Assembly (NCBI RefSeq): GCF_965215655.1
Contig: NZ_OZ244111.1
Span: forward strand, 517,963-581,962
DNA length: 64,000 nucleotides
Direction: 5' to 3'
Source: Nioella sp.
Lineage (GTDB): Bacteria > Pseudomonadota > Alphaproteobacteria > Rhodobacterales > Rhodobacteraceae
The translations under genes were made by a program, and so were the position numbers. Positions 3,538 to 10,116 of the stretch are shown in pieces. Each line of letters starts with the position of its first letter. The first letter of the stretch is position 1. The notes below the pieces were generated by a model. It was not told the DNA's origin, ran no database searches, and saw only the letters and a list, made by a program, of their open reading frames with translations.

Positions 3538-4071
3538 ATGGCTAGGTTTGTCGTCCTACCGGTCCTGATTGCCTTCGCCTGCCTTCTGGCGGGTCTCTAC
3601 GGAGTGGTTCACAACCAGATCAGCTATACGGTCGGTCCCGACTATTTCCATGCTTTCAAGTTCCCCCAGTTCAACATCGCCGAGGCACTGCCATTCCGGG
3701 TTGGCGCAGCCATCGTCGGCTGGCGGGCAAGCTGGTGGATGGGGATAGTGATTGGCGTGCCCATCGCCGCCATTTCCCTGGCCATGCCAACAACGCGGCA
3801 GATGGTCCGCACCTTTCTGCGGGCGTCCCTGCTGATCGTTGGGATCACGTTTGCGCTCGGTGTGGCCAGCCTGTTTGTGCCGGTCGACCCCGCACAGTTT
3901 CACCATTTCCGCGTCCCGCCCGGCGTCACGGATGTGCCTGGATTCATTCGAGCTGGGTTGATGCACAACACCAGCTATTGTGCAGGCATGATCGGCCTTG
4001 GCGCCGGGCTTATTTATATGATCGTTGCGGTCATCCGGGCACGGCGATCGGTCGGTAACACAGCCAGATAG
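3538..4071 (+). CDS. uncharacterised integral membrane protein
   Basis: 177 aa ORF, about four hydrophobic segments, motifs HNQISYTVGPDYF, WWMG and MHNTSY. Confidence 0.7.
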   Translation: MARFVVLPVLIAFACLLAGLYGVVHNQISYTVGPDYFHAFKFPQFNIAEALPFRVGAAIVGWRASWWMGIVIGVPIAAISLAMPTTRQMVRTFLRASLLIVGITFALGVASLFVPVDPAQFHHFRVPPGVTDVPGFIRAGLMHNTSYCAGMIGLGAGLIYMIVAVIRARRSVGNTAR

Positions 4072-4197
4072 GCACGGCATGTCGCGAAAAACCCGGGCGC
4101 GTGTCGGATTCTCGCGTTATCTGGTCGGCTGGCCTTCGCACCGACCTGCGCAATTCGGCACATTACCGGCAGAAAATCTGGCCCGGAGTCGCGCCCA

Positions 4198-6705
4198 ATG
4201 AAAACCCAAGTCAAAGCCCTTGTCGTCGGTGGCGGTGCCGTCGGCACCTCGATCGCCTATCACCTTGCCAAAGCTGGCTGGGACGATGTCATGCTGCTGG
4301 AACGTGATGAGCTGACCTCCGGCTCTACCTGGCACGCTGCCGGTCTGCTGCCGCTCTTCAATATGAGCTACGCGACGACCCATATCCACCAGTACTCGGT
4401 TGATTTCTACAAGACGCTGGAAGAGGAAACCGGTCTGAATGCGGGCTTTGCCGTCGTTGGCAACCTGCGCATGGCGCAGACGCAGGAGCGCATGGATGAA
4501 TACATGCTCTACGCGTCGACCGCCGAGACCTGCGGTGTAAAATACGAATGGCTGACGCCGGACCAGATCAAGGAACGCTGGCCGCTGATTGAGACGTCCG
4601 ACCTCAAGGGCGCGATCTATCATACCGAGGACGGCTATATTAACCCCGCCGACGTGACCCAGGCGATGGCCAAGGGGGCCCGACAGCGCGGGGTGGAGAT
4701 CGTGCGCAAGATGCAGGCCGATGCCTTCCACTGGAATGGCACCCATTGGGAAGTGACCTGCACCAAGATGGTGGAAAAGGGCGGCAACCTCGTGCCCTCC
4801 GACGAACAGGTCGTGATCACCGCCGAGCATGTGGTGACTGCCTCGGGCAACCACGCACAGCGCACCGCCAAGATGCTGGGCATCAAGATGCCCGCGATCC
4901 CGGTGGAGCACACGTTCATCGTCATGGACAAGGACCCCGAGCTGGTCAAATGGCGTGAGGCCGGCAACCCCGAGCACCCGGTCGTGCGCGATGCCGATAA
5001 TGAATCCTACGCCCGCGAAGAACGCGGCGGCTGGATTCTGGGCATCTACGAACACGGCGCGCCCGCGCGCTTTGAATATGGTGTGCCGGACAGCTTCCGC
5101 GCCGACCTCTTCCCGCTCGATCTGGACCGGATCGCCGACCAGTACATGGCGATGGCAGAGCGGGTTCCTTCCTGCGCCGAATCCGGCCTGAAGGACGATT
5201 TCAACGGCCCGATCTGCTACACGCCCGATGGCAACCCGCTGGTCGGCCCTGCACCGGGCCTGCGCAACATGTGGCTGGCCGAGGGCTTTTCCTTCGGGAT
5301 CACGGCGGCTGGCGGCACCGGCTACTACCTCGCCCAGATGATGGTCGACGGTGAGGCCGAGATCGACATGGCCAGCCTCGACCCCAAGCGCTACAGCCAG
5401 AACTGGATGACCACCGAGTTCGCCGCGCGCAAGAACGAGGAATGCTACGAACACGTTTACATCCTGCATCATCCGGACGAAGAGCGTGAAGCCTGCCGCC
5501 CGCTGCGCACCGCGCCCGCCTATGACCGGCAGAAAGCGCGCGGCGCGCAGTTCGGGTTTGTGAATGGCTGGGAACGCCCCAACTATTACGGGCCGCTCGA
5601 CGCGCCTGAGACCTTCGACCATGACGCCCGCAGCTTCCGCCGTGGCGGCTGGTGGCAATATGCCGTGGAGGAGGCCAAGGCGATCCGTGAAGGCGTGGGC
5701 CTGATCGACGCGACCGCCTTTACCAAGCACGTGGTCAAGGGCCCCGGTGCAACCGCGTTCCTCGACTGGTTCACCTGCAACAAGCTGCCGAAGGTGGGCC
5801 GGATCAACCTGACCTACGCGCTGACAAGTGCGGGCACCACGCGCACCGAATACACCATCGTGCGCAATGGCGAGAACAATTACTACCTCGTCTCCGCGGG
5901 GGCCTGGACCGAGTATGACGCCGACTTCCTTCGCAAGGCGGCCGAGGACAAGATGGAGGAGTTCGGCTATATCGAGATCCAGGACGTGACCACCCAGTGG
6001 GGCGTTTTCGCCATCGCCGGGCCGAAGTCGCGCGACGTTCTGAAAGAGGTGATCAAGGACGCCGATCCCGAAACCGCCCTGTCCAACAAGCGCTTCCCCT
6101 GGCTCTCGGCCCGCCAGATCGAACTGGGCATGTGCCCGGTCAATGCGATCCGCGTGGCCTATACCGGTGAGCTGGGATGGGAACTGCATCACCCGATCGA
6201 GATGCAGAACTATCTGTTTGATCTTCTTGAAAAAGCTGGCGAAAAGCATGGGATGAAGCTGGTTGGCGCGCGCGCGCAGAACTGGCTGCGGCAGGAGAAA
6301 TCCTACCGTGCCTTTGGCAACGAACTGGGCCGCGACGCGACGCCACTGGAAGCCGACCTGCCGCGTTTTGTGGACCTGTCCAAAGAGTTCAACGGCAAGG
6401 CGGAGATGGAGGCCAAGGGCATCCGGTCCAAGTGCTGCACCGTCCTGATCGACGGGCCGGAGGATGCCGATCCCTGGGGACGCGAAGTGCTATACACGCC
6501 GGAAGGCGAGCGGGTTGGCCGCCTGACTTCGGGCGGTTATTCGGTGGCCTTCGGCAAGTCCATCGGCATGGGTTACGTCACCCCCGATCTGGCCGTGGAA
6601 GGCACGAAGCTGAAGGTCAAGATGCTCGATCAGTTGTGGGATGCGGTCGTGACCTGCGACAGCCCCTATGACCCGAAAAACGAGACCATCCGCAAGGACG
6701 GCTGA
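4198..6705 (+). CDS. GcvT-family FAD-dependent oxidoreductase (dimethylglycine/sarcosine dehydrogenase-like)
   Basis: 835 aa; GGGAVG FAD motif, TSGSTWHAAG, YTPDGNPLVG, C-terminal aminomethyltransferase fold (YTGELGWELH, LRQEKSYR, TSGGYS). Confidence 0.9.
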   Translation: MKTQVKALVVGGGAVGTSIAYHLAKAGWDDVMLLERDELTSGSTWHAAGLLPLFNMSYATTHIHQYSVDFYKTLEEETGLNAGFAVVGNLRMAQTQERMDEYMLYASTAETCGVKYEWLTPDQIKERWPLIETSDLKGAIYHTEDGYINPADVTQAMAKGARQRGVEIVRKMQADAFHWNGTHWEVTCTKMVEKGGNLVPSDEQVVITAEHVVTASGNHAQRTAKMLGIKMPAIPVEHTFIVMDKDPELVKWREAGNPEHPVVRDADNESYAREERGGWILGIYEHGAPARFEYGVPDSFRADLFPLDLDRIADQYMAMAERVPSCAESGLKDDFNGPICYTPDGNPLVGPAPGLRNMWLAEGFSFGITAAGGTGYYLAQMMVDGEAEIDMASLDPKRYSQNWMTTEFAARKNEECYEHVYILHHPDEEREACRPLRTAPAYDRQKARGAQFGFVNGWERPNYYGPLDAPETFDHDARSFRRGGWWQYAVEEAKAIREGVGLIDATAFTKHVVKGPGATAFLDWFTCNKLPKVGRINLTYALTSAGTTRTEYTIVRNGENNYYLVSAGAWTEYDADFLRKAAEDKMEEFGYIEIQDVTTQWGVFAIAGPKSRDVLKEVIKDADPETALSNKRFPWLSARQIELGMCPVNAIRVAYTGELGWELHHPIEMQNYLFDLLEKAGEKHGMKLVGARAQNWLRQEKSYRAFGNELGRDATPLEADLPRFVDLSKEFNGKAEMEAKGIRSKCCTVLIDGPEDADPWGREVLYTPEGERVGRLTSGGYSVAFGKSIGMGYVTPDLAVEGTKLKVKMLDQLWDAVVTCDSPYDPKNETIRKDG

Positions 6706-6711
6706 GACGCG

Positions 6712-6799
6712 TTAACCGGGGGTGCCACCCGTGCACCGGGCGTACACCCCCTGTACACCCCCCGTGCAGACGCGGCTTTGCAACGCGGCCAAGGGTTAA
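6712..6799. repeat. 88-bp REP/MITE-like element with TTAACC...GGTTAA ends and four 11-bp internal units
   Basis: Units CGTGCACCGGG/CGTACACCCCC/TGTACACCCCC/CGTGCAGACGC at 6730-6773; 6-bp terminal inverted repeat. Confidence 0.7.
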
Positions 6800-6825
6800 G
6801 GCGCGGGGCGATCGGTAAGAGATTG

Positions 6826-6860
6826 GAAAGACCCGCACGACCGGCGGGTCTTTCTTTGTT
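6826..6860 (+). terminator. intrinsic terminator
   Basis: GAAAGACCCGC-7 nt-GCGGGTCTTTC followed by TTTGTT. Confidence 0.8.
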
Positions 6861-6992
6861 GTGTCCCGACACGCGGCGATGTGCCGTGGGGGTACGAGTT
6901 CGAGCCAGCCGCAGCATGATCTCCTGGCCTCATGTATCAAATGCATCAACAATCTAGCTGACATTTCGGTCCATTTGAATCACCCTGCCCCC

Positions 6993-7190
6993 ATGCAGAA
7001 CAAGACCATAGATAACGCGCTTTTGGCGCTGAGAAAGCAGGGTGGTCAGCAAGGCAAGCAAGCAGACGTGCTGCTGGACATGCGCGGTGTTGCTGCCCTG
7101 GCCCACTATCAGGTTGCGCCGGAGCGACGAGCATTCACAACAAGCTATTGCGAGGCAAGTTCAGCGCGGCTTTCCTACTTCAGTCTTTAG
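6993..7190 (+). pseudogene. small, possibly truncated hypothetical protein (MQNKTIDNALLALRKQGG...)
   Basis: 65-aa ORF inside the inverted-repeat islet; N-terminus looks like an amphipathic helix; 3' end overlaps the convergent cargo ORF by 30 nt. Confidence 0.4.
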
Positions 7191-7718
7191 TGGCGATTGG
7201 GTCTTTTGATCTTCGAATATAATTGGTCGTCCAGACTGCTCGATAAGCTTGTACAACTGAAAAGCAGCGCGGCCAGCCTCAGTATCGCTGCCGATAGAAA
7301 AATCACCAAAAGAGCAGTCAATGAAGTCGTAAGCGCCCGTGCCATTGTACAAAAGCTTTACGCCGTTAAACTGACAGTTTTGAAAAGACTTTCCATCAAT
7401 TATAAGCTTATCATGTCGGAAGATTTTCCCACTCACAACTTCTTTTTTGATTGTAAACTTTGGCGGAAATTTTGACTTGAAGAAGTGCTGAAGCCACAAC
7501 GCTCCTGTACTTCCAAGCAGTACAAAAAACAAAGCTAATAATGGTGGCCCCAATGAACTATCAACAAACACACCGGACCCCTCCGACAGTAAGCGGTTCA
7601 TTCCTTGGCCAGCGGCCCACTCTTCTATGTTTTGCCGGTAGATGGTCCCCATCGGGATCAGCACAATAACCAGCAGTGCCGTTGAAACAAATCTCCACAT
7701 GGCAAGACCATGCCTCAC
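7161..7718 (-). CDS. low-GC hypothetical membrane protein (two TM helices plus a soluble C-terminal domain)
   Basis: 185 aa open frame across AT-rich DNA; GTG start at 7718 or ATG at 7700; C-terminal IIDGKSFQNCQFNGVKLLYNG. Confidence 0.65.
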   Translation of the reverse strand: MRHGLAMWRFVSTALLVIVLIPMGTIYRQNIEEWAAGQGMNRLLSEGSGVFVDSSLGPPLLALFFVLLGSTGALWLQHFFKSKFPPKFTIKKEVVSGKIFRHDKLIIDGKSFQNCQFNGVKLLYNGTGAYDFIDCSFGDFSIGSDTEAGRAAFQLYKLIEQSGRPIIFEDQKTQSPLKTEVGKPR

Positions 7719-7852
7719 CGCATGGAGGTTGTGGAGTCATTTCATAAACTCCTCTTCTGCACGCTTGGTGCGCTTGATACATAAGGCTGGGCTTTCCATC
7801 GGGCGGCTGCTCGGCCAAACTGGACGTTCAGTGATTGCTACGGGGGATCGGC

Positions 7853-8233
7853 ATGGCAACGGCGGCGGTGGTGATTGGTTTGGTGGCCTTCGGCTGGCTG
7901 ACGCTCTTTCAGATCGCGCTGGCAGCAGGTGCGCCGATTGGGCACCTGGCCTGGGGCGGGGCCGCGCGGGTGCTGCCGAAGGGCCTGCGGGTGGCGAGCG
8001 CCCTGTCCGTTCTGCTGGCGCTGCTCGGCTTGCTGGCAATCGCCGAGACCGGCGGAGTGATCGCGCCGGTGTTTCCGGAGGGCTGGTTGCGCCCTGTCCT
8101 CTGGGGGCTGGCCGGGCTCTTCGGGCTGAGCGTTCTGACCAATCTCTTCGGCGCGCGAGGGTTGGAACGGTTGCACGGCGTCCCGCTGGCTTTGCTTTGC
8201 GCCGGGTCGTGCCTGGTGTTGGCCCTGTCCTGA
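7853..8233 (+). CDS. small integral membrane protein
   Basis: SD GGGGGA before ATG 7853; four hydrophobic segments; FQIALAAGAPIGHLAWGG motif. Confidence 0.7.
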   Translation: MATAAVVIGLVAFGWLTLFQIALAAGAPIGHLAWGGAARVLPKGLRVASALSVLLALLGLLAIAETGGVIAPVFPEGWLRPVLWGLAGLFGLSVLTNLFGARGLERLHGVPLALLCAGSCLVLALS

Positions 8234-8354
8234 CACATGTGGGGAAGGGGGATGCCGTCAGGCATGCCCCGGCCCAATGCCCTTGCAGGGGCGTTCCACG
8301 CCGCCCGTCAGGGCCGCGCGGGTCGATGCGCGCGACACTGCGCAGCGAAATCTC

Positions 8355-8951
8355 TCAGCGGCGCAGGAACCGGCCCAGAACGTCGTCCATCGCAGACCCG
8401 TCGCCATCTGCGTCAAGCAGATCGTTCAGCATGCCAAGCCCGCCACCGCGGCTTGACCCGCCACCGCCGAGCAGACCGCCGATCATCCCGGCCAGCCCGC
8501 CGCCCTGCGCCTCTTCTTCTGCCGCGTCAATCTGGTCGTCCGGCATCTGCCGTTGCAGCCCGCCCTGCGCCATTGCGGCGAGCGCTGGCAGGAATTGGCT
8601 GACCAGATCGCGGTCCACGCCAGAGCGTGCGGCGGCTTCGTCCGCCAGACCATCTGCGGCCTCTTGCCCGCCCAGAAGCGCCGACAGGAAATCGCGCCCC
8701 TGCGCCTGACCGTCGGAACTGGCCGCCGCTTCGGCATCGTCGAAGAGCCCCGCCTGATCCTGTCCGCGCAGCCGCCCGAGCACATCGCCAAGCCCGCCGC
8801 TTTCCGCGCGCTGGCGCGCGGCCGACCCGATGGCGGGGGCCAGCAGCGATGTCAGGCTTTCGGCCTGCGCGTCGTCCAGCCCAAGCTGAGAGGCAAGCTG
8901 CCCCAGACCCTGACCGCCCTGCGCCTGCTGCAAAAGTCGCATGATCGACAT
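8355..8951 (-). CDS. DUF937/YidB-like protein
   Basis: LGQLASQLGLD..LAPAIG..ARSGVD..FLPALAAM..LDADGDGSAMDDV pattern. Confidence 0.75.
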   Translation of the reverse strand: MSIMRLLQQAQGGQGLGQLASQLGLDDAQAESLTSLLAPAIGSAARQRAESGGLGDVLGRLRGQDQAGLFDDAEAAASSDGQAQGRDFLSALLGGQEAADGLADEAAARSGVDRDLVSQFLPALAAMAQGGLQRQMPDDQIDAAEEEAQGGGLAGMIGGLLGGGGSSRGGGLGMLNDLLDADGDGSAMDDVLGRFLRR

Positions 8952-9052
8952 GGTAATCCCTTTCTTAAATCCCGTGACCCGATCAGGTCAGCACAGATGC
9001 CGCCGTCGGGGAACCCGATTCGGGTGTCGCGGGCCGGATCGGCGGAAGGGGG

Positions 9053-9412
9053 TTATTCGGCGGCTTGGGGGGACAGGGCCGCGTGCAGCTCGTCATAGGC
9101 ATCCATCGCCTTGGCCGCATACATCAGTGCCGGGCCGCCGCCCATCTGCACCGCCATGCCGAGCGCTTCGCCCAGTTCCTCACGGCTGCCACCGGCGCGG
9201 ATCAGCACCTCGATATGGAAATTCATGCACGGCTCGCAGCTGTCGGCCACCGCGATGGCCACGGCAATCAGCTCCTTTGTTTTCACATCGAGCGCGCCAT
9301 CGGTTTTCACCACCGCGCTGACCCCTGCAAAGGCCTTTGTCACCTCGGGGATTGCCTTGTTCAGCTTGCGCAGCTGCCCGTGCATTTCGTCGCGTTTTTC
9401 CATCCAGCTCAT
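9053..9412 (-). CDS. carboxymuconolactone decarboxylase / AhpD-like protein
   Basis: ALDVKTKELIAVAIAVADSCEPCMNFH (CxxC..H), ELGEALGMAVQMGGGP. Confidence 0.9.
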   Translation of the reverse strand: MSWMEKRDEMHGQLRKLNKAIPEVTKAFAGVSAVVKTDGALDVKTKELIAVAIAVADSCEPCMNFHIEVLIRAGGSREELGEALGMAVQMGGGPALMYAAKAMDAYDELHAALSPQAAE

Positions 9413-9467
9413 GGCGGTCTCCTGCTATTCTTTCGGCCTGTCAGAACAGGTTGGCAGGGGCCGCGCC

Positions 9468-9481
9468 TTGACCGGGATCAA
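9468..9481. promoter_or_regulatory. FNR/FnrL-type box
   Basis: TTGACCGGGATCAA matches TTGAy-N4-rTCAA; centre is 62 bp upstream of the CMD start codon. Confidence 0.6.
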
Positions 9482-10116
9482 TTGGCGCTGACAATTACCA
9501 TGAGGTTGTTGGAGGGCATCTCCACCGTTTCGGTCCTCAGCGGTGACAGGCGGTCGCGGACCAAGGCGATATCCTTGTAGCCGATGGCGGGGTCCTGCGC
9601 CCGCAGGCTGGCATGGAAGGCGGCATCGCCGTCGCTGGTCGTTTCGCCGTCGCGCAGGAACGGGCCATAGAGGAATGCCTTGCCGCCGGGGGTGAGGGCC
9701 TTTGCGATGCCTCTCAGCACCGCCTCGGCCTCTGTGTCCGCGATCAGGTGCAGCAGGTTCACCAGCAGGATCATGTCGGCGGGGCCATGGGTTGCGTGCC
9801 AGCCGGGGGTGGCGGCGTTCAGTTCGACGGGTGGGCGCAGGTTGGCGGGGCCTTCGGCCTGCCGCCACGCCTCGATCGAGGCCAGCCTTTCGGGGTCCAG
9901 ATCGGTCGGTTGCCAGTCGAGACTGGGAAAGGCGCGGGAGAAGGCCACCGCATGTTCCCCGGTGCCCGCCGCGATTTCCAGGACGCGGCCTTCGGTGGGG
10001 GCATGGGCGCGCAGCACCTCAAGGATCGGGCCCATGTTGCGCCGGGCAGAGGGCGCGGACATGCGCTTGTCTGTGCCAGCCGAGGGCGCGTCCGGCAGGG
10101 TCAGCCTGCGGGTCAT
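9478..10116 (-). CDS. DUF938 family SAM-dependent methyltransferase (METTL26-like)
   Basis: APSARRNMGPIL, VLEIAAGTGEHA, WQPTD, LYGPF..G..SDGDAAFHASLR..D; start overlaps the upstream stop (ATGA); the ORF-track start at 10248 is likely too long. Confidence 0.85.
   Translation of the reverse strand: MTRRLTLPDAPSAGTDKRMSAPSARRNMGPILEVLRAHAPTEGRVLEIAAGTGEHAVAFSRAFPSLDWQPTDLDPERLASIEAWRQAEGPANLRPPVELNAATPGWHATHGPADMILLVNLLHLIADTEAEAVLRGIAKALTPGGKAFLYGPFLRDGETTSDGDAAFHASLRAQDPAIGYKDIALVRDRLSPLRTETVEMPSNNLMVIVSAN

Follow-up and report, generated by a model that had tools for sequence, protein, structure and literature searches.

An islet of about 0.9 kb, located at 6925-7789 of the 64,000-nucleotide stretch of Nioella sp. 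DNA analysed here (hereafter the window), is very probably a defective, transposase-less derivative of a transporter insertion sequence (IS) of the ISNha5 group, IS1595 family, which arose by internal deletion. At 865 bp, it counts as a derivative of an IS1595-family member and not itself as an IS. The low-GC islet is real but ordinary, that is, it represents a known kind of mobile element and no new system. A first-pass annotation of the same DNA had described it as a candidate undescribed mobile cassette. Several of its observations are borne out: GC content is 38-45% at 7200-7600 against 63% across the whole window, two open reading frames point inward (a small one at 6993-7190 on the forward strand and one of 185 aa at 7161-7718 on the reverse strand), and the window is free of any transposase gene. 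The idea of a mobile cassette with swappable cargo holds partly. The islet is part of a mobile element with terminal inverted repeats (TIRs) at its ends, and its relatives carry varied cargo; the claim of a new system belonging to no transposase family does not stand, as full copies encode a zinc ribbon plus an IS1595-family DDE transposase, are flanked by 8-bp target duplications, and show affinity to the ISNha5 group.

The ends of the islet

Within 6000-8800, the top inverted pair is 6927-6949/7765-7787, which is complementary at 19 of 23 positions. Once multiple testing is taken into account, this repeat could by itself be due to chance: a core match of this quality was reached in 1 of 2000 dinucleotide shuffles of the two intergenic pieces alone, and, among 895 pairs of 140-nt pieces taken across the window at a comparable spacing, 4 equalled it. 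The repeat is accepted as real because of external evidence, namely a transposon family whose ends carry this motif. In viral and metagenome contigs, over 150 sequences terminate in the motif, C-GGCCTTATGTATCAA(A/G)CGCACCAAG, which was found in 14 viral and at least 120 metagenome stretches. The arm consensus was built from 150 unique ends, and the conservation figures for positions 2-23 are inflated because these positions belonged to the search pattern.

Compared with this consensus, the left TIR (6925-6950, forward strand) is decayed. It reads T-GGCCTCATGTATCAAATGCATCAAC and shares 21 of 26 positions with the consensus, C-GGCCTTATGTATCAAACGCACCAAG, the deviations being the tip (position 0) and positions 6, 17, 21, and 25. 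The right TIR (7764-7789, reverse strand) reads C-AGCCTTATGTATCAAGCGCACCAAG on its own strand and agrees at 24-25 of 26 positions, with A for G at the conserved position 1 and the A/G variant that is common at position 16. Both tips are mutated (left T instead of C, right A instead of G), at positions that are 97-99% conserved in the family and lie outside the search pattern. The window copy has the TIRs common to its IS1595-family relatives, and homology to them runs inward from both ends.

The arms had first been taken to be 49 nt long. Each is in fact about 26 nt: homology to other copies begins at 6926 and ends at 7789, and the outer half of the supposed right arm (7790-7813) is conserved flanking sequence in a relative with an empty site. 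Similarity between the two outer halves is weak, with a local score of 8 that was equalled in 89 of 5000 shuffles and in 114 of 5000 real pairs from the window. The 49-nt arm was rejected on these two grounds. Folding of the left flank as DNA gave no structure.

Full-length relatives and their transposase

The arm motif occurs in inverted pairs around varied cargo at many loci that are unrelated to one another, and a gene for a protein of the MQD(R/K)TI(D/N)NALLALRKQ type usually adjoins one arm; the first reading had listed this outcome as support for its proposal. Perfect 8-bp target duplications flank 17 of the 24 testable arm pairs, and the enclosed elements measure 2.4-4.5 kb. Full-length relatives of 2.9-3.6 kb usually have the order left TIR, winged-helix gene, cargo slot 1, transposase gene (on the opposite strand), DUF6471 gene, cargo slot 2, and right TIR. 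For example, a perfect 25-bp inverted pair at one locus (L081) encloses a winged-helix gene, a DUF3800 gene, and an IS1595 transposase gene. Slot 1 is occupied by MazF/PemK, HicAB, SocA/Panacea, an M78 peptidase, a methylase-Mrr fusion, or DUF3800, and slot 2 by diverse membrane-anchored proteins; small proteins of DNA-binding type are also among the passengers of the relatives. One element of 3311 bp is 100% identical on four contigs at no fewer than three different sites. Deletion derivatives other than the window copy exist in the family (L102, L104, L130, and the 105-bp L092), and one of them (L104) lacks the transposase and has a perfect target duplication. A search for further copies of the 105-bp form, which resembles a miniature inverted-repeat element (MITE), found only the one.

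The IS1595 family is characterized by the DDE_Tnp_IS1595 domain with an N-terminal zinc ribbon, except in the IS1016 group, and by 8-bp target-site duplications (PMC8101967). The transposase of the relatives matches DDE_Tnp_IS1595 with 117 bits (cut-off 27) and Zn_ribbon_IS1595 with 54 bits (cut-off 25); no such gene is present in the islet or elsewhere in the 64-kb window. Against the three trimmed ISNha5-group reference domains on which the group assignment rests, taken from the supplement of PMC8101967, it scored 144 (ISNov3), 141 (ISBos1), and 100 bits (ISNha5) at 44-53% identity, and at most 52 bits against ISNwi1, IS1016, ISSod11, IS1595, ISPna2, and ISH4. The ISNwi1 group was rejected on the basis of these scores (52 bits versus 100-144 bits). 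Clustering with the ISNha5 group was found for the transposase of the relatives, and the window copy has none. The motifs DGAYFGG and ADEAxHWD, specific to the group, are common to the relatives' transposase and the ISNha5 group. In the ISfinder family table, the ISNha5 group is characterized by CGGnnTT ends, passenger genes, and sizes of several kb, and the CGGCCTT ends of the present family presumably fit this pattern. In plasmid records, transposases of at most 60% identity were found, labelled just 'IS1595 family transposase'.

Internal deletion in the window copy

The interior of the islet is colinear with full elements. Its left end and the 5′ part of the winged-helix gene correspond to element positions 2-190, the 3′ part of the DUF6471 gene to positions 205-298, and its right end to the last 58-64 nt. 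The winged-helix remnant (6993-7130, forward strand) comprises codons 1-46 of about 110, as seen from tblastn, from its colinear position in full elements, and from nine homologues of 108-114 aa, which are 58-72% identical in the N-terminal part. Homology to the winged-helix gene ends at about 7130, and homology to the DUF6471 gene starts at 7130 in another frame, which places the deletion junction at 7127-7132. At this point, full-length copies have about 2-2.4 kb containing the 3′ half of the winged-helix gene, cargo slot 1, the transposase gene, and the 5′ half of the DUF6471 gene. The junction joins winged-helix codon 46 to codon 44 of DUF6471 in a different frame, and the transposase gene is thereby gone.

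The DUF6471 remnant (7130-7222, forward strand) runs from codon 44 to the end, contains NKLLRGKFSAAFLLQSLVAIG, and terminates with a stop at 7220-7222. It is 68% identical over 25 aa in tblastn and 88% identical in nucleotides to one relative (L165); the assignment to DUF6471 was made on a homologue (L093, 107 bits). What had been called a small conserved ORF is therefore not an intact gene. The 65-aa frame at 6993-7190 on the forward strand is a chimera left by the internal deletion, in which 46 winged-helix codons are followed by 19 codons that read through the DUF6471 remnant out of frame. A second copy of this junction was not found among 137 related loci.

The remaining cargo gene

The sole intact gene of the window copy is its slot-2 cargo (7161-7700, reverse strand), with a GC content of 45%. 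It encodes 179 aa from ATG, or 185 aa from GTG at 7718. An initial word-indexed homology search gave one match, and the protein was regarded as an orphan; this was overturned by exhaustive phmmer, which detected 191 relatives, all uncharacterized. The N-terminus is 62% identical to P0001, with pN of 0.18 versus pS of 0.78. Scans with Pfam, NCBIfam, and PADLOC, which also covered several cargo proteins, returned no family for the product of either islet ORF.

The protein is predicted to have N-terminal membrane helices followed by a short quadrilateral beta-helix domain. This comes from AlphaFold2 with an alignment (pLDDT 89.5), which gave a good model, while the single-sequence prediction was useless (pLDDT 49). 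Foldseek against the PDB yielded weak, pentapeptide-repeat-like matches only (E of 0.02 or higher, TM-score of 0.3 or lower). An exact look-up of the protein in public assemblies gave no record, and RNA runs labelled with the same species contained nothing from 4000-9500.

The target site in Nioella

The host is a Nioella-like marine bacterium, and two housekeeping genes flank the islet. The closest relative, Nioella sp. MMSF_3534 (L001), is 93% identical in nucleotides in the flanks and has an empty site, which the first-pass annotation had named as support for its reading. Its sequence aligns to the window up to 6893 and again from 7789, exactly where the right arm stops, and 22 nt replace window positions 6894-7788. 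The 8-mer next to the right tip (7790-7797), GGCTTTCC, occurs once in this empty site. At the left tip, a degenerate 8-mer, TGATCTCC (6917-6924), may be the other copy of the target duplication; it agrees with GGCTTTCC at 5 of 8 positions, against 8 of 8 in 17 of the 24 testable pairs elsewhere. Thus, the earlier statement that no target duplication could be seen was nearly right. An extra stretch of 31 nt (6894-6924) lies between the end of the MMSF_3534 alignment and the left tip. It does not belong to the element family, whose other members align only from 6926, and is unlike the 22 nt of the empty site. Because the duplication is not intact and these 31 nt by the left tip are unexplained, the insertion cannot be reconstructed base for base.

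The only convincing terminator (6825-6855) follows the upstream gene. No sigma-70-like promoters were found, and an Rfam scan of 6600-8000 gave no match. A gene for a 132-aa membrane protein, starting at 7835 or 7853, lies about 50-65 nt downstream of the remnant, which may have displaced its promoter.

Mobility of the window copy

The window copy is most likely an immobile fossil, because its tips are mutated, its target duplication is preserved at only 5 of 8 positions, and a close transposase is present neither in the window nor at genome depth in the sequencing runs of the isolate. Mobilization in trans, as originally suggested, is unlikely for this copy on the same grounds. A still-active non-autonomous cassette, moved by an IS1595-family transposase elsewhere in the genome, would in fact look similar: TIRs and cargo without a transposase are the layout of a mobile insertion cassette (MIC) as defined in PMC3129680, the right arm is close to consensus, the cargo ORF is intact, and the transposase-less relative with a perfect duplication demonstrates that the family yields such derivatives. 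An intact cargo ORF would equally be compatible with an element that is younger or still of use. However, besides the deviating tips, the further changes in the left arm, and the degenerate duplication, there is one copy in 64 kb, and its deletion form is unrepeated in the 137 related loci. In the isolate's runs (X1 and X4), transposase-like contigs have depths of 3-13x versus 90-208x for the genome, or about 3-6% of genome depth, and no transposase of at least 80% similarity was found at genome depth. The direct reading covered 64 kb, and the rest of the genome was represented by assembler contigs at the 80% likeness threshold, so that an IS1595 transposase of lower similarity may have escaped detection. 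Joints indicating excision or inversion over 6400-8300 were absent from one run (X1), as judged from contigs, which drop rare variants. An active cassette is accordingly improbable.

The direction of the event has to be considered as well. If the element was ancestral at this site, the relatives would have lost it by excision or deletion. The spacer is indeed variable in all relatives, with an unrelated gene in N. ostreopsis and 250 nt of other DNA in N. aestuarii, and the 22 unrelated nt of MMSF_3534 do not make a clean empty site. However, three Nioella species lack the element, as does an abundant metagenome population (X5), whose high-depth contig joins 6894 to 7842. Moreover, the element tip lies exactly at the right junction, and MMSF_3534 has one occurrence of the target 8-mer, as expected for an unoccupied target. 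Ancestral presence is thus very improbable, and insertion of the element into an unoccupied site remains the preferred reading.

A chance inverted match, or recombinase sites of an invertible or excisable segment, around an unrelated horizontally acquired islet would agree with the lack of a local transposase and with the equal-score matches in the window, and is practically dismissed, as the same 26-nt sequence ends the transposon family with its 8-bp duplications and internal DDE transposase, homology extends past the arms into both element ends, and the isolate's contigs show no joints.

A possible history and its meaning

In the family, the transposase presumably binds the TIRs of about 26 bp and inserts the element with an 8-bp duplication at GAWATWTC-like sites. 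We know of no study of transposition chemistry in the ISNha5 group. One such element would have inserted between the terminator of a dimethylglycine-dehydrogenase-like gene and the gene for the 132-aa membrane protein, probably after the lineage had separated from Nioella sp. MMSF_3534. About 2-2.4 kb from winged-helix codon 46 to DUF6471 codon 44 would have been deleted, before its arrival or later, so that the slot-2 cargo gene remained between the two ends. Both the tips and the duplicated target would have drifted afterwards.

The low-GC islet, the truncated ORF, and the orphan-looking membrane gene can then be read together as the scar of one old transposition. For the window itself this matters little, beyond moving what had seemed a new system into a known family; there is some value for annotation, where transposase-less IS remnants are seldom recorded. 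The collected loci are of wider use, in that they show an ISNha5-type transposon lineage to be active in marine Rhodobacterales, one copy being 100% identical at three or more sites. This lineage shuttles toxin-antitoxin or restriction-type genes together with variable membrane proteins, and DUF6471 and a small winged-helix protein are always present. DUF6471 gains a testable context as a candidate accessory factor of an IS1595-family transposon. The accessible literature contained no mention of DUF6471 and no description of the fixed trio of winged-helix protein, transposase, and DUF6471 with two cargo slots. It is a tentative suggestion, rather doubtful at present, that the marine Rhodobacterales elements with these ends form an undescribed modular ISNha5-type subgroup, with a fixed core and two exchange slots, and that the host has kept the slot-2 gene after the death of the element, as domestication rather than mere decay.

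Comparison with known elements

The predicted C-terminal domain of the cargo protein, a right-handed quadrilateral beta-helix, has pentapeptide-repeat proteins (MfpA, AlbG, and Qnr) and the SV2 luminal domain as its top fold matches. Unlike these proteins, the window protein is membrane-anchored and far shorter, and gives no Pfam pentapeptide match.

MITEs are likewise non-autonomous derivatives that keep only the IS ends, as exemplified in this family by the 105-bp element. The window copy differs from MITEs, which are non-coding and only tens to a few hundred bp long, in having 865 bp and an intact 179-aa gene.

Mobile insertion cassettes are closer in layout. The example described is MIC231, an IS231 derivative in Bacillus cereus (De Palmenaer et al., 2004; cited in PMC3129680 and PMC3281130). 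As in MICs, the IS-type inverted repeats enclose a gene of another kind and no transposase gene. However, mobilization in trans is part of the definition of MICs, which are usually present as several copies, whereas the window has only one, its tips mutated and its duplication degenerate. The signs of such mobilization (further copies, clean duplications, and a cognate IS) were not found for this derivative in the window, runs X1 and X4, or the 137 loci. The IS family is also different, and remnants of two element genes show that the window copy originated by internal deletion.

The best match is the ISNha5 group, which is known for passenger genes (PMC8101967; PMC11891212); ISNha5 itself carries those for transcription regulators (PMC11891212). 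ISs with passenger genes are named transporter ISs (Siguier, Gagnevin and Chandler, 2009, cited in PMC3129680, PMC8101967, and PMC11891212). Transposases of the marine subgroup reach only 44-53% identity with the three references, and the window copy, having no transposase, is not autonomous. The full-length relatives share with the group the zinc-ribbon and DDE transposase, 8-bp duplications, TIRs, and passenger genes.

A Decayed Element in the Low-GC Islet

The low-GC islet at 6925-7789 (865 bp, with arms of ~26 nt at 6925-6950 and 7764-7789) is very probably what an ISNha5-type transporter IS leaves behind after DDE transposition, loss of its middle and decay to an immobile remnant. The element would have been inserted into the spacer in an ancestor of the strain, and its middle would have been deleted either in place or before a move in trans; the one gene left intact after the decay may still serve the host or may no longer do so. 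The rival readings, namely an active MIC-type cassette, ancestral presence of the element, and a chance repeat or recombinase sites, are all ranked weaker.

The window (63% GC) belongs to a Nioella-like member of the Rhodobacterales, and GC is 38-45% across 7200-7600. Upstream of the islet lies an 835-aa gene with FAD oxidoreductase and GcvT domains (4198-6705), whose protein is 99% identical to that of Nioella sp. MMSF_3534 and 97% to those of N. ostreopsis and N. aestuarii. A strong terminator-like hairpin (6825-6855) stands between its stop and the islet, which is followed by a 132-aa membrane-protein gene (7835-8233) and, beyond it, a DUF937 gene (8355-8951, minus strand). ORF calls agree with the first-pass annotation on the two ORFs of the islet.

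Full-length relatives of the islet have a constant layout: end, winged-helix gene (starting ~69 nt from the tip), a variable slot 1, a transposase of ~320 aa on the opposite strand (81-91% identity between most copies, falling to 68-71% for the two most divergent), a DUF6471 gene (68-74 aa), a variable slot 2 and end. Pfam scores were 117 bits for DDE_Tnp_IS1595, 54 bits for Zn_ribbon_IS1595 and 107 bits for DUF6471, and the winged-helix protein has only weak winged-helix matches. These elements align to the window from 6926 at the left tip up to 7789 at the right tip. Positions 2-190 of the window element match the left end and the 5' part of the winged-helix gene, positions 205-298 match the 3' end of the DUF6471 gene (88% to the full-length element L165), and the last 58-64 nt match the right end. 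The small ORF, whose only homologues are proteins of 108-114 aa sharing its first ~45 residues, had been regarded as conserved. However, its winged-helix homology runs up to codon 46 (~7130), where DUF6471 homology begins at codon 44 in another frame and continues to the stop at 7220-7222. Because the one stops and the other starts out of frame at 7130, the ORF is a chimera produced by a deletion of ~2-2.4 kb, which, judging from these alignments, took the remainder of the winged-helix gene together with slot 1, the transposase and the DUF6471 start. Similar deletion derivatives were found elsewhere (L102, L104 and L130).

An active MIC-type cassette, under which the islet would still be mobile, is an unlikely reading of this copy. 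The left arm departs from the consensus at five positions, one of them its tip (T for C), the right arm departs at position 1 (A for G), the flanking 8-mers agree at 5/8 only, and no transposase was found in the 64 kb. When the isolate's sequencing runs (X1 and X4) were compared with three full-length elements (L165, L140 and L137) at a likeness of at least 80%, the only full-depth matches were to the window's own remnant. Transposase-like contigs had a depth of just 3-13x where the genome had 90-208x; such depths suggest that their source is a minor contaminant, a co-resident organism or a co-cultured relative, not the main genome. These contigs of 2-38 kb carry a related full-length element with transposase. 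The assembler contigs of the isolate's run, in which rare variants are dropped, showed no joints of the kind that excision or inversion would leave.

A Variable Spacer and Its Empty Site

An empty site in relatives, which the first-pass annotation had named as a check, was found among 80 relatives fetched via the upstream gene and aligned to the window. Nioella sp. MMSF_3534 (L001) aligns with 93% identity as far as 6893 and with 90% identity beginning at 7789, and just 22 nt separate the two stretches. The right break of this alignment coincides with the tip of the right arm, and the left one falls 31 nt short of the left arm; these 31 nt (6894-6924) are part of neither the element nor the relative's spacer. 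An unrelated secreted, EF-hand-like ORF occupies the spacer of N. ostreopsis, and ~250 unrelated nt that of N. aestuarii (counterparts of window 6860-7830 compared: L002 10663-11235, minus strand, and L072 10640-10800). The N. ostreopsis protein has a signal peptide and many D-x-D-G-type motifs, which look EF-hand-like by eye. Every Nioella species examined has a different spacer between the dehydrogenase-like and the 132-aa membrane gene; insertions and small indels have a hot spot here. The abundant related population (146x) of the aquatic metagenome X5 joins 6894 to 7842, and contigs identical to the islet are at only 2-5x there. From the empty site, the other Nioella spacers and these contigs, the islet is therefore an insertion/deletion polymorphism in a variable spacer. 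That the element was present ancestrally and lost in the relatives is a highly improbable account of it.

The right tip of the remnant is ~45-65 nt upstream of the 132-aa gene start (TTG 7835 or ATG 7853). The insertion may have separated this gene from its original promoter; a simple scan found no sigma-70-like promoter. Just past the stop of the dehydrogenase-like gene, ~57 nt at 6718-6774 (GGGGGTGCCACCCGTGCACCGGGCGTACACCCCCTGTACACCCCCCGTGCAGACG) have ~40x the depth of their surroundings in the isolate's run and loose ends on both sides, and are thus a dispersed short repeat of the genome. Three other Nioella species conserve the stretch in the same position, and within the 64-kb window it has no second copy.

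The Arms as Transposon Ends

The inverted repeat first reported here is real: 6927-6949 pairs with 7765-7787 at 19/23 positions, the top inverted pair in 6000-8800. The local score of the two non-coding pieces alone was reached by 1/2000 dinucleotide shuffles; in a window-wide control, 4/895 equally spaced pairs of 140-nt pieces scored equally well, so that the repeat by itself would fail multiple testing. The arms of 49 nt originally drawn shrink to ~26 nt, since the outer right half is conserved flank and the outer halves have only CGAG(C)CAGCCGC in common, a score met by ~2% of shuffles and real window pairs. A chance repeat, or a pair of recombinase sites, nevertheless has next to no standing, as the arm motif does extend beyond this locus, where the first-pass annotation had asked for a scan: 14 viral-contig and at least 120 metagenome stretches carry it. 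Among the matches listed, arms form 27 pairs enclosing elements of 2.4-4.5 kb, with perfect 8-bp target duplications in 17 of the 24 testable pairs (chance ~1.5e-5 each) and a preferred target of roughly GAWATWTC. The end consensus of these matches (150 unique ends) is C-GGCCTTATGTATCAA(A/G)CGCACCAAG, in which positions 2-23 were the search pattern and conservation is unbiased at positions 0, 1, 24 and 25 only.

One small-ORF homologue lies on L081, a Rhodobacterales-type genome contig, where a perfect 25-bp inverted pair GGCCTTATGTATCAAACGCACCAAG surrounds 2975 bp. This stretch contains the gene of the homologue along with genes for a DUF3800 protein and an IS1595-family transposase, plus two small ORFs, and has the direct repeat GATATTTG on either side. 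Directly inside the same arm, on a short contig, lies P0001, which a word-index search gave as the sole homologue of the 185-aa ORF (7161-7718, minus strand). One arm pair is a 105-bp MITE-like element (L092 4194-4298), two perfect 30-nt arms around 37 nt without ORF or target duplication; no more copies were found in viral contigs and fetched loci. Four metagenome contigs (L140 7180-10490, L145 655-3965, L178 2497-5807 and L184 2147-5457) carry one and the same 3311-bp full-length element, 100% identical, at no fewer than three different target sites (GTAATACA, CACAAAGC, GATATTTC). This identity indicates recent transposition, and thus an autonomous form that is active now or was so until recently. 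The left flank of L145 is common to L184 and the right flank is different, which suggests recombination between copies or chimeric assembly. Many copies are on contigs that IMG/VR classes as viral (L083-L096); these may be prophages with the transposon aboard or bacterial DNA wrongly classed.

Cargo

Slot 1 holds PemK/MazF, HicA with a DUF1902 (HicB-like) protein, SocA/Panacea, M78 peptidase, an N6/N4 methylase-Mrr fusion or DUF3800 (examined in L093, L131, L104, L125, L165, L190 and L081), repeatedly genes of toxin-antitoxin, restriction or immunity type. SocA/Panacea is paired with an unfamiliar partner, and the methylase is fused to an Mrr-type nuclease domain. Slot-1 cargo had no match among the PADLOC models tested. 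Slot 2 holds mostly membrane-anchored proteins without family. In several elements a ~305-315-aa membrane protein (MSKS.W...), without known family, begins within the last codons of the DUF6471 gene (element coordinates L093 2265-3179, L131 2189-3130, L128 2447-3397 and L181 2489-3427); the overlap suggests translational coupling in a two-gene module.

In the window copy, the 179-aa ORF (ATG 7700) is intact despite a GC of 45%. Over its N-terminal 86 codons, comparison with P0001 yields a pN of 0.18 and a pS of 0.78, which marks it as a real coding sequence whose membrane anchor is constrained. An exhaustive phmmer search returned 191 relatives, the top one with 53% identity across the full length, and these have a conserved core V-x-G-K-x-F-R-N-E-x-V-x-I-D-G-K-x-F-x-x-C-x-F-x-N-V-T-L. 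AlphaFold2 with the relatives' alignment (pLDDT 89.5) gave three N-terminal helices, a short beta-strand coil at 87-137 and a final helix. Foldseek against the PDB returned no significant match; the top weak matches were all pentapeptide-repeat-like quadrilateral beta-helices (SV2 luminal domain, AlbG and MfpA). From the model we commit only to a predicted membrane-anchored small beta-helix protein. Since a relative with 42% identity lies at an ordinary chromosomal locus that lacks the transposon ends, the cargo family is a passenger and not transposition machinery.

Relation to Known Insertion Sequences

At the family level the picture is a modest lead: a fixed winged-helix/transposase/DUF6471 core with two cargo slots rich in toxin-antitoxin/restriction-type genes, and active identical copies in marine metagenomes. 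In ISfinder, ends of the ISNha5 group read CGGnnTT, and the ends of this transposon family read CGGCCTT. Against the trimmed reference-IS DDE domains that accompany PMC8101967, the transposase of the full-length copies scored 144 bits with ISNov3, 141 with ISBos1 and 100 with ISNha5 (44-53% identity), and at most 52 bits with every other group. As a transporter IS, ISNha5 carries passenger genes of regulator type (PMC11891212, PMC3129680), and the window copy is a defective derivative of this known IS family.
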